This document shows positions 3,420 to 53,781 of a stretch of 64,000 nucleotides of DNA, one piece after another (position 1 is the stretch's first letter; each line of letters starts with the position of its first letter). The stretch covers positions 39,273-103,272 of the IMG/VR virus record IMGVR_UViG_3300032272_000001, one strand, 5' to 3'. The DNA is from a virus. Its lineage: Duplodnaviria; Heunggongvirae; Uroviricota; Caudoviricetes. A program made the translations under genes and the position numbers. The notes beneath the pieces were generated by a model. The model was not told the DNA's origin. It worked only from the letters and a program-made list of their open reading frames with translations, and ran no database searches.

Positions 3420-4088
3420 ATGATTATATCAAAAGAAACAATAGCAGTATTACAAAATTTTCAGACTATTAATCCGTCTATTATTTTACGCGAAGGTAAC
3501 GTAATTGCAACACAAACCCCTAGCGATACAATTCATGCTAGGGCAACAATTGAGGATGAATTTCCAAGAACAATTCCAATTTATGATCTGAATAAATTTC
3601 TTGGTATTCTTGCACTAACAAAAGAAGATAGTGATATCGAATTTAGTGAACGGTATATGACTATCACTCAAGGAAAATCGACTGTTAGATACGCATATAC
3701 TTCTGAAAGCCAAATCGTATCACCACCAATCGATAAAACTATAAATATTAGTAATCCTGATGTTACATTCGAACTAACACAAGAAGTGTGGTCAAGACTT
3801 TCTAACGCAATGCGTGTTATGGGATTTTCTGAATTTGCCTTTGTTGGTGAGGATGGAATACTTAGTATCCAAGCTCTTAGCACTAAAAACGATTCATCTG
3901 ATACGTATTCAACAGATATTGGCGAAACAGATAAAACATTTTCTTGTGTAATAGAAGCAACAAATATGAGAATTATCCCTGGTAATTATTCTGTATCTGT
4001 GCTAAGTAAAGGATTATCACATTTTAAAGGAGATATCGCAGAATATTGGATTGGTATTTCCACAAGATCAACATTTGGAGAAGAATAA
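3420..4088 (+). CDS. 45: Sliding clamp (T4 gp45-like)
   Basis: MIISKETIAVLQNFQTINPSI, IYDLNKFLG, NMRIIPGNYSV. Confidence 0.93.
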   Translation: MIISKETIAVLQNFQTINPSIILREGNVIATQTPSDTIHARATIEDEFPRTIPIYDLNKFLGILALTKEDSDIEFSERYMTITQGKSTVRYAYTSESQIVSPPIDKTINISNPDVTFELTQEVWSRLSNAMRVMGFSEFAFVGEDGILSIQALSTKNDSSDTYSTDIGETDKTFSCVIEATNMRIIPGNYSVSVLSKGLSHFKGDIAEYWIGISTRSTFGEE

Positions 4089-50166: not shown

Positions 50167-50173
50167 TATACAT

Positions 50174-50351
50174 GTCCTGATGGTCTCAATGGTAAGACGG
50201 TACGGCCTGGTGTGTTCGTGAGAGCCAGGGCTTGTGGAACTGATATCTGATAGCTAGGGTTATTGGATGGGTGAAGCAAGGTCTAACGTGCAAATGCGAA
50301 AAATGCTCGCTATCCCTATAGAGCAAGGTTCGATTCCCGCGAAGGACTCCA
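50174..50351 (+). ncRNA. tRNA-like RNA with ~120 nt structured insert in place of the anticodon arm
   Basis: GTCCT/AGGAC acceptor, D arm GTCT-CAATGGTA-AGAC, GGTTCGATTCC, 3' TCCA. Confidence 0.5.
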
Positions 50352-50428
50352 AATACGAGTTTATCCGCATAACGCTAGAAATAGCATTATTAAAAATTTA
50401 ATCTAATTTAATATTATGGAGAAATGTG

Positions 50429-50884: not shown

Positions 50885-51211
50885 ATGATTAATTTTAAAC
50901 CTAGAAAACTAACACTAACAAGGAGAATGGGAATGACACGCGTTAAGAAACCTGGATATATGGGACGTGCGGTAACTGCATGGAGTGTGCTTAATCTAGC
51001 ATTGCTTGTAGTTCTCTATGTAATGACATATATTCTAAAAGATTATATGGATCACTGGATTGTAATGGCTGTAATTCTTATTGCAACAGTAACAACTGAA
51101 TGGGCTATTACAGTTCTTACAGTTCTTCCGATCGTGAAAGAGTGGATTGACCAAGAAGAATATGTTAATGACGGTGAAAAGCCATCTTGGGAGAAACCAA
51201 TTGATAAGTGA
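50885..51211 (+). CDS. Two-TM membrane protein
   Basis: Two hydrophobic segments. Confidence 0.6.
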   Translation: MINFKPRKLTLTRRMGMTRVKKPGYMGRAVTAWSVLNLALLVVLYVMTYILKDYMDHWIVMAVILIATVTTEWAITVLTVLPIVKEWIDQEEYVNDGEKPSWEKPIDK

Positions 51212-51254
51212 TCATCTATTTGGTTGCTAATGAAATGTTTAGGAGGAATATTAG

Positions 51255-51467
51255 ATGCGAAATAATTATGATATTTTTGATATAATGTTTATTGTTTTTA
51301 TACTTTCAGTTGTGCTTATGATTATCTATATTAATTTCTTCGAACCGCCTGGACCAACAGTACAGGAAATCACAGCACAACAGCATTCGCAATGTCAAAA
51401 ACTGGGTGGCGAAACTGTTCTTGACTATAGATTCGAATTTGATAAATGTATAATTAAAAGAAAGTAA
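51255..51467 (+). CDS. Small membrane-anchored protein with Cys pair
   Basis: TM then CQKLGG...C. Confidence 0.6.
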   Translation: MRNNYDIFDIMFIVFILSVVLMIIYINFFEPPGPTVQEITAQQHSQCQKLGGETVLDYRFEFDKCIIKRK

Positions 51468-51471
51468 TATT

Positions 51472-51750
51472 ATGGAAAAAGAATTTAAAGAAATTACACA
51501 AGAAGACAAACAAGAAATTCTTGATGGTTGGAATGATGCGTGGGTTTCTGTTACTGAGAAAGAAATGTATAGCCAAGGTCGTTGGGATTTATATTTTTCT
51601 AAAATATACAAACACAAGCCATCAGAAACATTCTGGGAATTTTCTTGGAAAGAAGCTGCAACAGAATGTCAAGAATGTAGCAATTTTATCAATATGGTAC
51701 GAGTTTATCCGCATAAAGTATTCAGAATCGAATATAAATTAACGCCATAG
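51472..51750 (+). CDS. Hypothetical protein
   Basis: ORF track. Confidence 0.55.
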   Translation: MEKEFKEITQEDKQEILDGWNDAWVSVTEKEMYSQGRWDLYFSKIYKHKPSETFWEFSWKEAATECQECSNFINMVRVYPHKVFRIEYKLTP

Positions 51751-51780
51751 ATACAATTATTAAAAATTTAATCTAATTAT

Positions 51781-51815
51781 GCGCTGGTATTCCAATCGGC
51801 AGAGAAATGGGTTAA
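51781..51815 (+). pseudogene. 5' half of interrupted tRNA-Leu(UAA)
   Basis: GCGCTGG acceptor strand, D arm, ends GGGTTAA; complementary to the 3' half at 52327. Confidence 0.8.
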
Positions 51816-51823
51816 TATAAATT

Positions 51824-51909
51824 GAGGGTGTGGTGGAACTGGTTTACACAAGGAGCTTAAAACTCCTCGCCCATATGGCTTGCAGGTTCGAATCCTGCCA
51901 CCCTCACCA
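51824..51909 (+). tRNA. tRNA-Leu(UAA), intact, long variable arm, encoded CCA
   Basis: GAGGGTG/CACCCTC acceptor; AGGAG-CTTAAAA-CTCCT anticodon arm; GCAGG-TTCGAAT-CCTGC. Confidence 0.95.
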
Positions 51910-51932
51910 ATTTATTAAAGAGAAAGATTATT

Positions 51933-52331
51933 ATGAAAATTTATGGTCCTTACAAACGTAAGGATGGAAGAAAACATATTATCAAGATATATCCTAATGG
52001 AAAGCGAAGAACTCAATCATATCCTCGTTATTTAATGGAACAGCATCTTGGAAGAGAATTACTAGAATCAGAAGAAGTAGATCATATCGACAATGACCAT
52101 ACAAATAATGATATCTCTAACTTACAACTCCTTACCAAAAAAGAAAATCTCCAGAAAGCGGCAGAACTTAGACTACCTGAGATAGACACTTTCTTTTGCC
52201 CAACCTGTGACCAACAGTTCGAAAAAGCAGTATGTATAGTCAGAGGAAATCAAGCAAAACAAAATAAAGCTGGTCCTTTTTGCTCTAGATCTTGCGCAGG
52301 TCAGTATAGTACATCGGTACAGTATGCTTAA
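51933..52331 (+). CDS. HNH homing endonuclease
   Basis: EEVDHIDNDHTNNDISNLQLL; C-terminal CPTC...FCSRSC. Confidence 0.9.
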   Translation: MKIYGPYKRKDGRKHIIKIYPNGKRRTQSYPRYLMEQHLGRELLESEEVDHIDNDHTNNDISNLQLLTKKENLQKAAELRLPEIDTFFCPTCDQQFEKAVCIVRGNQAKQNKAGPFCSRSCAGQYSTSVQYA

Positions 52332-52371
52332 AATCCCTCCAGTATGGGTTCGAATCCCATCCAGCGTACCA
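52327..52371 (+). pseudogene. 3' half of interrupted tRNA-Leu(UAA)
   Basis: CTTAAAATCCCT, ATGGG-TTCGAAT-CCCAT, CCAGCGT-ACCA. Confidence 0.85.
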
Positions 52372-52425
52372 AGGATATATAAAAAAACTGGTAGGTGGTA
52401 TTGTTATTGAGTTCGATTTTTCTGA

Positions 52426-53781
52426 TTAAGATTCGTTTGTACTAACACGACCATCAAATTTTTTCTTAATTCTACCTTTAAACTGTTCTTTTAATGTTCC
52501 GTGATTTTTGGGCCATCTTGCACCAAGAAAACGATTTTTGGATATCTTTGTTACATTAACTGTATCTGATTGATTACCTCCAAGAATATGATAATAATCA
52601 TCATCTTCTGAAACATAGAAACCAACATGGCCAGCCCAACCAGATTTTTTTCCTCTCCAGAAAACCATTGTTGCCCCATATTGAGGATTGGTCGGAACAC
52701 CAGCTTTCAACCAATTTCTTGCGCCAAGTGGATTTTTTATTTCTGATTTTATATCATTTGCGCTCCAACAATAATCAACAAATAAGCCACACCAATGAAT
52801 ACTATCTTTGGTATAATAACTTTTAACAAAACCACCAATAGATTTCGCCCATTTAATTATTTTGGGGTTGTTTCCAGATCCACGTACTTCATCTGTTCCC
52901 ATAAGGGCTTTTGCTGTATGCATCCAAGGCACATCACGAACAACATCAGATTCAACATCAGGCAATTCTTCATCAGAAATAACAGATTTATTTTCTTCGA
53001 TTCTATTTTTTGTGTTTGTGTATATTGCTTTATAAAGTATTTTTGCTCCACAAACAATAAAATTAAAAACAGCTAATAGACACGTCATCCAATTATGATA
53101 ATTTCGTGTTTTTGGTATGTAGTCAATTTCTTCTGAAGGTTCTAATTCTTCTTGAATTTCTTCTTCATAATCTGTACCAATTATTTTGATGCAATCTTCT
53201 AATTCTGGTTTATATCGTTTGTTTATGATGTTGCTTTTGATTCTATCGCTCAATGTTCTGAGATTTTTTACATAGCAACTACGCTCATTATACAAATTGA
53301 ATAGTTGTTTTTCTATATCATTCGGAACACCAGAATATGCCGCAGCAGAAACAATTTTATTTGCACCACCATGTTGTACAGAAATAGAAAATAGAGCTTC
53401 TTGTATCGCTCGATCATTAATATAAAATCCTAATTTTTCAGCATGATTTTTTACTGGCAAATAATGTGTGGTTGCATAAAATACTTTTTGTGCGTATTCA
53501 AATCCTTCTGGATCTGATTTTGCTATCTGTTTGTAGATTTTATTGAAATTTTTTGTTCCTGGCTTGAAATTATTAAATTTCTTAGCATAAGGTTCCCCCC
53601 ATTTGCTTTCAAGAAATTTCCCCATAGAATATGCTGAACTGAGTTGATGGACTCCATATGATTGTCCACCAGGATCGCCCCAATCGTCACCATTAGATAT
53701 AAATTCTACACCTCTACCACCAGATTCATATTTTGCTGATATGAAACCAAAATCTTTATGAAATTTCATCGCATTCTCCAT
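52426..53781 (-). CDS. Two-domain peptidoglycan hydrolase: lysozyme-like N-domain plus NlpC/P60-CHAP (TIGR02594-like) C-domain
   Basis: SAKYESG..GDDWGDPGGQSYGVHQ; PWM..A..L.G..E, HWCGLFV, GHVGFY, ILGGNQSDTV. Confidence 0.85.
   Translation of the reverse strand: MENAMKFHKDFGFISAKYESGGRGVEFISNGDDWGDPGGQSYGVHQLSSAYSMGKFLESKWGEPYAKKFNNFKPGTKNFNKIYKQIAKSDPEGFEYAQKVFYATTHYLPVKNHAEKLGFYINDRAIQEALFSISVQHGGANKIVSAAAYSGVPNDIEKQLFNLYNERSCYVKNLRTLSDRIKSNIINKRYKPELEDCIKIIGTDYEEEIQEELEPSEEIDYIPKTRNYHNWMTCLLAVFNFIVCGAKILYKAIYTNTKNRIEENKSVISDEELPDVESDVVRDVPWMHTAKALMGTDEVRGSGNNPKIIKWAKSIGGFVKSYYTKDSIHWCGLFVDYCWSANDIKSEIKNPLGARNWLKAGVPTNPQYGATMVFWRGKKSGWAGHVGFYVSEDDDYYHILGGNQSDTVNVTKISKNRFLGARWPKNHGTLKEQFKGRIKKKFDGRVSTNES

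Follow-up and report, generated by a model that had tools for sequence, protein, structure and literature searches.

The window, i.e., the whole 64,000-nt stretch of DNA that was analyzed, comes from a complete phage genome of 176 kb with 33% GC and terminal repeats. On its plus strand, the two pieces of a tRNA(UAA) gene with a short variable arm (51781-51812 and 52327-52371) enclose an intact tRNA-Leu(UAA) gene with a long variable arm (51824-51909) and a gene for an HNH homing endonuclease (51933-52331). Besides a permuted tmRNA, ARAGORN called six tRNAs in the genome, of which the enclosed (inner) gene was the sole tRNA-Leu; TTA was the commonest leucine codon of the phage, and TTA and TTG together made up 52% of its leucine codons. 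The surrounding (outer) gene was not called by ARAGORN unaided when the intron search was used. The same search reported, outside the window (G000:C1:112584-112745, minus strand), a tRNA with a 65-nt insert in its anticodon loop and a Leu-like D arm, TGCTGAAATTGGTAAATAGCA.

The outer 5′ piece (nt 1-31), identified by homolog identity and a split-tRNA scan, reads GCGCTGG-TA-TTCC-AATCGGCAG-AGAA-A-TGGGT, with the acceptor strand GCGCTGG, the D arm TTCC-AATCGGCAG-AGAA, and TGGGT as the 5′ strand of the anticodon stem. The 3′ piece (nt 32-76), supported by homologs, by ARAGORN on the joined sequence, and by an Rfam local tRNA match at 52311-52368, consists of CTTAAAA (loop), TCCCT (stem), CCAGT (variable loop), ATGGG-TTCGAAT-CCCAT (T arm), CCAGCGT (acceptor strand), A (A73), and CCA. 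Removal of the 514 bp in between (51813-52326) joined the pieces into a 77-nt cloverleaf that was accepted by ARAGORN. The program was permissive on joined halves, accepting many other joins too; in the split-tRNA scan of the 176-kb genome, the window locus was the single convincing long-range case, and shuffled genomes gave a mean of 0.2 hits. As suggested in a preliminary description made from the DNA alone, the acceptor strands GCGCTGG and CCAGCGT, the latter followed by ACCA, are complementary: all 7/7 positions pair, with one G-U. The only two flaws of the joined tRNA are a U-U at 31:39 and a U-U at 27:43, the latter shared with the intact tRNA of comparison locus L081. Halves this little damaged are compatible with either recent insertion or continued use.

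The outer gene matched a type of phage tRNA(UAA) that has 74-78 nt, a 5-nt variable loop, a D arm of the YCCAAYNGG type, and A73. Eighteen distinct intact members of this short-variable-arm type were found, the nearest to the outer gene being those of L081 and L046 (L-numbers denote sampled comparison loci; WIN denotes the window locus). The intact L081 gene was identical at 25/26 positions to 51787-51812 (nt 7-31), with the identity stopping at 51812, and the intact inner gene of L046 at 21/21 positions to 51787-51807. On the other side, the 3′ exon of L062 was identical at 21/22 positions to 52340-52361, and an intact short-arm tRNA(UAA) on a 292-nt contig from the source sample at 32/34 positions to the outer 3′ piece. 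Judged from these alignments, the insert separates nt 31 from nt 32 of a resident gene, just where the anticodon loop starts on its 5′ side. The two halves do rebuild a short-arm tRNA, as had been proposed, with the 5′ half ending at 51812 according to the L081 identity and not at 51815.

Short-arm tRNA(UAA) genes of 74-78 nt with A73 are widespread in phages (L017, L024, L033, L035, L039, L046, L049, L059, L081, and others) and mostly adjoin an HNH gene of the family described here. The amino acid with which they are charged has not been established. Bacterial tRNA-Leu has a long variable arm as a norm, and the amino acid carried by the short-arm tRNA(UAA) is therefore an open question. A tRNA at L010 (1803-1874 of a 353-kb IMG/VR contig) has the amber-reading anticodon CTA and resembles the outer tRNA of the window in its T arm and acceptor.

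The insert opens with 11 nt, TAATATAAATT (51813-51823). They include TATAAAT, which by eye resembles a T4-type late promoter and is common by chance in an AT-rich genome; no sigma-70-like site was called at this left end, and no sigma-70 or terminator signal was called for the inserted genes as a whole. The inner tRNA-Leu(UAA) follows, with 86 nt, the anticodon taa (ARAGORN), and an Rfam tRNA score of 57.6 bits (E 1.9e-11). It has the long variable arm, UAA anticodon, A73, and CCA of a bacterial type II tRNA-Leu, ending in CACCCTC-A-CCA with the CCA encoded, and it is thus the intact long-arm gene that the preliminary description had placed inside the insert. Its anticodon loop, CUUAAAA, is identical to that of the outer tRNA; the earlier proposal that the inner gene is a nuclease-resistant substitute stays speculative. 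Between this tRNA and the HNH gene lie 23 nt (51910-51932) with a ribosome-binding site, ATTTATTAAAGAGAAAGATTATT, which are collinear with and similar to the tRNA-HNH spacers of L107 and L021 (alignment A2).

The HNH ORF matched Pfam HNH_3 (PF13392) with 42 bits against a cut-off of 24.8, and it is the one HNH_3 gene of the 176-kb genome. Its 248 homologs at E up to 1e-8 had mostly 124-135 aa, from which the 132-aa protein was judged to be full length (alignment A1). Residues D50-H51, N63, and N72, the catalytic set, as well as the zinc-binding C89, C92, C117, and C121, were retained and were invariant among 36 homologs; conservation in the homolog alignment extended to the final residues. The end of the ORF overlaps the first 5 nt of the outer 3′ piece, and its stop codon TAA (52329-52331) coincides with nt 34-36 of the outer tRNA, so that the earlier observation of a stop codon made from the old anticodon was borne out. 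A structure predicted with a pLDDT of 93.8 gave I-HmuI (1u3e) as the top Foldseek match in the PDB (probability 1.00, E 0.012, 117 columns); a sequence search of the PDB found no matching chain, just zinc-finger noise. By its motifs and predicted fold, the protein meets the criterion for an HNH_3, I-HmuI-like enzyme, and cleavage activity is inferred. At the extreme end of the ORF, just before the outer 3′ piece, 52305-52326 form an imperfect inverted repeat, AGTATAGTAC-ATCG-GTACAGTAT, which is not conserved in L104.

No group I intron core was detected in 51300-52800 by the Rfam Intron_gpI model at E up to 10; the same model detected cores in L062, L061, L084, L086, and L050. The insert is wholly filled by the 11 nt, the tRNA, the 23-nt spacer, and a conserved ORF that runs up to the 3′ piece, leaving no space for a ribozyme core. 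The U34/A35 site rule of group I introns is also unmet, with the junction at nt 31/32. T51812 and G52326 satisfy the exon-U/intron-G rule by happenstance, which is weak evidence alone, and no pairing between the insert ends into a terminal helix was seen in folds. TTAA is present at both junctions, as had been pointed out, but it is no meaningful signature: the left copy consists of T31 and the first three bases of the insert, and the repeat is therefore uninformative. A target duplication was ruled out as the origin of the two TTAA copies, given this makeup of the left one and the 33% GC of the DNA.

Immediately upstream of the outer tRNA, a self-match of the source contig defined a repeat module on the plus strand (51698-51780) that ends in TTATTAAAAATTTAATCTAATT, and a second copy lies at about 50354-50410. 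The module may be a promoter or leader module. The second copy is preceded by a 180-nt intergenic stretch (50172-50352) with a start resembling a tRNA 5′ half, GTCCTGATGGTCTCAATGGTAAGAC, a T-loop-like GGTTCGATTCC, and then GAAGGAC-T-CCA; it has imperfect stems and went uncalled by both ARAGORN and Rfam.

Association of the HNH family with tRNA(UAA) genes

To place the HNH gene among its relatives, 80 HNH loci were sampled from IMG/VR and supplemented with further contigs, and 90 were tallied. A tRNA(UAA) gene lay on the same strand within 150 nt of the HNH gene in 78/90 loci (approximately 87%), usually with a gap of -38 to +32 nt. The tRNA was downstream of the HNH gene in 33 of these 78 loci, upstream in 17, and split by an intron in 11; a further 8 were nested as in the window, 6 had a 5′ remnant or orphan 5′ piece, and in 3 the HNH gene adjoined an intron-bearing tRNA. 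The partner tRNA(UAA) genes were of both types, long-arm (83-89 nt) and short-arm (74-78 nt). Cultured phages showed the association as well, with an HNH homolog immediately upstream of tRNA-Leu(UAA) in Salmonella (Seunavirus) and Klebsiella phages.

In the intron-split class, approximately 180-225 nt separate the HNH ORF from the T arm, and the exons meet at CTT/AAAA, i.e., at U34/A35, the classical intron site. L062 (64.8 bits), L084, L086, and L050 each have a group I core located after the HNH ORF and before the 3′ exon. At L061, the core (58.9 bits) lies in a tRNA-Leu intron just downstream of a free-standing HNH gene. The closest homolog of the window HNH on a long contig is that of L016. 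There, a tRNA-Leu(UAA) at 3634-3943 holds an ORF-less intron of approximately 250 nt at CTT/AAAA, which the Rfam group I model misses at E 0.01; a terminator-like hairpin follows the tRNA, and then a free-standing HNH gene, in the layout of collaborative homing.

In Salmonella phage vB_Sen_SG_WM_RUS_R7 (L002, 2451-2479), the ATG of the HNH gene directly adjoins an orphan 5′ piece of the short-arm type, GCGTCCTTGGTCCAATCTGGTAGAGGCAT, and downstream of the HNH gene lies an intact long-arm tRNA-Leu(UAA); the same was seen in PVP-SE1 and L070. This orphan piece is unannotated in the records, and in PVP-SE1 the HNH gene itself is unannotated.

Recurrence of the nested design and the search for an empty allele

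Besides the window, seven loci were nested: L046, L047, L051, L052, L058, L073, and L083. In L046, L047, L051, and L052 the tRNA types are reversed, with an outer tRNA of the long-arm type and a short-arm inner one, and in L058 a short-arm outer tRNA encloses an HNH gene that precedes the long-arm tRNA. In the HNH tree, the nested forms are spread over no fewer than five separate clades, and the inner anticodon is always UAA. The outer gene is perfect in the window and in L058, and has lost stems in L046 and L073; this graded damage looks like a decay series.

The closest relatives of the window HNH (L104-106; 67% identity) lie between the halves of another tRNA(UAA), with the same right junction as in the window (TAT GCT TAA AAT) and without an inner tRNA. 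No spare tRNA was present in the short contigs at hand for these loci, which indicates that compensation is not obligatory. In WIN, L104/105, L073, and L083, which represent three distant HNH clades, the outer anticodon TAA doubles as the stop codon of the HNH gene. Orphan 5′ tRNA pieces were found in at least 24 loci; they end at approximately nt 27-31, most often close to nt 31, just before an HNH gene or a tRNA-HNH unit, whereas the 5′ exons of true introns extend to nt 34. The unit of tRNA, spacer, and HNH gene is collinear in WIN, L021, and L107 (alignment A2), where it stands behind three different orphan 5′ pieces, and it therefore appears to move as a cassette. At L075 (1952-2417), a lone HNH gene of the family lies between tRNA halves with an apparently different anticodon loop, with no space for a ribozyme and no inner tRNA; TATAAATA immediately precedes its ATG.

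Relatives with the uninterrupted gene, which the preliminary description had named as a check, were found only in part. Intact homologs exist at other positions, namely, L081, the inner gene of L046, and the exons of L062, but no empty allele was found in synteny. A blastn search with 51000-53000 against 50,697 phage records returned no match, exact scans of IMG/VR for either outer tRNA half returned none, and a gapped search for the acceptor pattern returned unrelated tRNAs only. The neighboring 451-aa gene had no relatives in viral or metagenome contigs. A junction-spanning pattern of the intact allele was absent from metagenome contigs, and a joint skipping the insert was absent from the contigs of the only sequencing run listed as containing this DNA, a run labelled as a sediment metagenome and probably the source sample. 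No RNA run with this DNA was listed. The collections hold no close relative of this phage in which the gene could be seen uninterrupted at this position; a syntenic empty allele could therefore not be shown, and the insertion is inferred from the non-syntenic homologs.

Origin and fate of the split gene

Taken together, the data demonstrate how the locus is built, that the HNH family is associated with tRNA(UAA), that a ribozyme is absent, and that the design recurs. Our favored explanation, to which we assign a probability of roughly 65%, is that a ribozyme-less homing-endonuclease cassette was inserted into a resident tRNA(UAA) gene; the cleavage specificity, the homing, and the silence of the outer tRNA are inferred. 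An unspliced HNH-tRNA cassette in the anticodon region of a tRNA(UAA), compensated by an isoacceptor, had been put forward already. The idea now has comparative support, with no experiment, from the 78/90 link to tRNA(UAA), the intron-encoded relatives, the lack of a ribozyme, the nested forms in at least five clades, and the shared tRNA-spacer-HNH unit.

The cassette would consist of the short leader, the long-arm tRNA-Leu(UAA), the 23-nt spacer, and the HNH gene. The HNH protein is presumed to recognize and cut the anticodon-arm DNA of tRNA(UAA) genes free of the element, for which the link to tRNA(UAA) in 78/90 loci and the clustering of breakpoints at one tRNA position are indirect evidence only. 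The break probably falls at about nt 31/32, at a distance of three bases from the intron position. If a donor with an HNH gene next to its own tRNA then served as the repair template, the HNH gene would be copied into the break, alone or together with that tRNA. Where homology in the repair was one-sided, an orphan half might be left, and where there was none, both halves would be kept around the cassette, as in the window. With no ribozyme in the insert, the outer tRNA could not be restored at the RNA level, and the outer gene is inferred to be dead and to yield no product; decoding of UUA and UUG would rest on the inner tRNA. With a tRNA half on each side, the cassette could behave like a homing intron and invade related tRNA(UAA) genes that are intact. 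Points against the favored explanation are the homology arms of 31 and 45 nt, a short length for homing, the near-undamaged outer halves, the want of a syntenic empty allele among the records searched, and the lack of a spare tRNA at L104-106 in the short contigs available.

The same end state, a dead outer gene and a spare inner tRNA, would have been reached without any cassette insertion if a true HNH-encoding group I intron had lost its ribozyme core in place and captured a tRNA-Leu. An HNH gene of the same family does occupy a group I intron in the same tRNA type at L062, the upstream remnants at L046 and L107 hold intron-like sequence past the 5′ exon, and the tRNA that adjoins the closest long-contig homolog (L016) carries its ORF-less intron. 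However, the left junction of the window is at nt 31/32 and not at 34/35, and Rfam detected no intron remnant in the window. In addition, the right junction recurs unchanged at L104-106, where the outer tRNA is a different one, and the tRNA-spacer-HNH unit is common to loci with other outer tRNAs. These observations fit better with movement of a ready-made unit than with decay in place, and we consider such decay unlikely, if still worth keeping in mind.

Two further possibilities differ from insertion of a cassette in what becomes of the outer tRNA or in the part played by the HNH protein. The insert could be removed from the RNA without a ribozyme, by tRNA-processing or other nuclease cuts and an RNA ligase, which would leave the outer tRNA functional and represent a new kind of phage tRNA intron. 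The near-perfect halves in the window, L058, and L104/105 and the precise, recurrent junction positions can be read in this way, but the insert ends form no helix in folds, the outer halves are clearly decayed in the nested loci L046 and L073, and were the outer tRNA produced, the inner one, identical in anticodon, would be superfluous. We know of no pathway in bacteria or phages for protein-based cutting and ligation of such inserts. A search of the genome with PF09511 (T4 Rnl1-type RNA ligase) gave no match, but the controls were silent as well, which makes this search uninformative. RNA removal appears very improbable to us, and we hold out just as little hope for its extension to the family, in which the ribozyme-less tRNA(UAA) inserts would be protein-spliced true introns, releasing the inner tRNA and the HNH mRNA from one precursor. 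Alternatively, the locus could be a passive scar, left by recombination in a tRNA cluster, with the HNH gene a mere bystander. Phage tRNA regions are prone to recombination, a repeat module flanks the region, and free-standing endonucleases are common near tRNAs (SegB; PMC13096335). Chance rearrangement is nevertheless hard to reconcile with an association that is specific to the UAA anticodon, to the same strand, and to gaps of -38 to +32 nt, with breaks that recur at a single tRNA position across many independent loci, or with stop codons that equal the anticodon in three HNH clades, and we regard it as improbable.

Relation to known mobile elements

Mobile introns are thought to persist because splicing renders their insertion harmless. 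The window locus and its relatives suggest a second route to harmlessness, in which an endonuclease gene brings a spare copy of the gene that it breaks. Since a single HNH family occurs at all stages, i.e., free-standing, beside an ORF-less intron, within an intron, within a broken tRNA gene without a ribozyme, and there with a spare tRNA, it is well suited to studies of how target genes, introns, and homing endonucleases swap places. The cassette may also account for the spread of tRNA genes among unrelated phages. Annotation is affected too: in phage genomes, those of cultured Salmonella phages among them, the halves of split tRNAs and short-arm tRNA(UAA) genes are overlooked or given wrong labels. 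Our literature searches found no published account of phage tRNA-Leu introns with HNH genes, of split phage tRNAs, or of spare-tRNA cassettes. Homing-endonuclease elements as such are known; we found no description of gene invasion by an intron-less HNH gene that carries a spare tRNA.

The group I intron of tRNA-Leu(UAA) occurs in cyanobacteria and plastids, and its classical form lacks an ORF. The tRNA-fMet group I intron encodes I-Ssp6803I, a statement for which we rely on the citation of Bonocora and Shub (2001) in a review (PMC3984707). Like these introns, the insert in the window interrupts the anticodon-loop region of the same kind of gene, and relatives of its HNH lie in group I introns of tRNA(UAA) genes at U34/A35 (L062, L050, L084, and L086). 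Unlike the tRNA-Leu(UAA) introns, it has no ribozyme, its junction is at nt 31/32 instead of 34/35, and an intact tRNA lies inside it. All phage introns known by 2014 were in protein-coding genes, according to the same review of bacterial group I introns (PMC3984707). Collaborative homing has been described there for the free-standing F-CphI with a psbA intron and for an intron in the DNA polymerase gene of phage PhiI (PMC3984707). The loci L016, L061, and L102, with HNH genes beside intron-bearing tRNA-Leu genes, are similar to this; the window differs in having no intron, with neutrality achieved through a spare gene and not through splicing.

I-HmuI of Bacillus phage SPO1, an HNH nicking endonuclease encoded in an intron, is likewise a phage homing enzyme of the HNH_3 type, and it was the best structural match of the model predicted for the window HNH. 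The two proteins share 21% identity, and only the window HNH has the C-terminal four-cysteine module. The target of I-HmuI is a DNA polymerase gene, whereas that of the window HNH is inferred to be a tRNA gene. Among phage endonucleases with a link to tRNA genes, the one that comes closest in the studied cases is SegB of T4/T6, a free-standing GIY-YIG homing endonuclease in a tRNA gene cluster, which cuts within tRNA genes, drives the inheritance or amplification of neighboring tRNA genes, is often located beside tRNAs (PMC2330249; PMC13096335), and shows no preference for a tRNA isotype (PMC13096335). The window family has a different nuclease fold and is tied to the anticodon UAA. SegB has also not been reported to split a tRNA gene while bringing a replacement.

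Intron-less insertion of an endonuclease gene is exemplified by mobE, which splits nrdA in Aeromonas phage Aeh1, and in the mitochondrial atp6 of Allomyces a mobile endonuclease element brings a replacement 3′ end. As in these elements, an endonuclease gene in the window has entered an important gene without an intron, and a working version is left or brought along. Those cases concern protein genes or pieces of genes, whereas in the window the broken RNA gene encloses a complete second one of identical anticodon.
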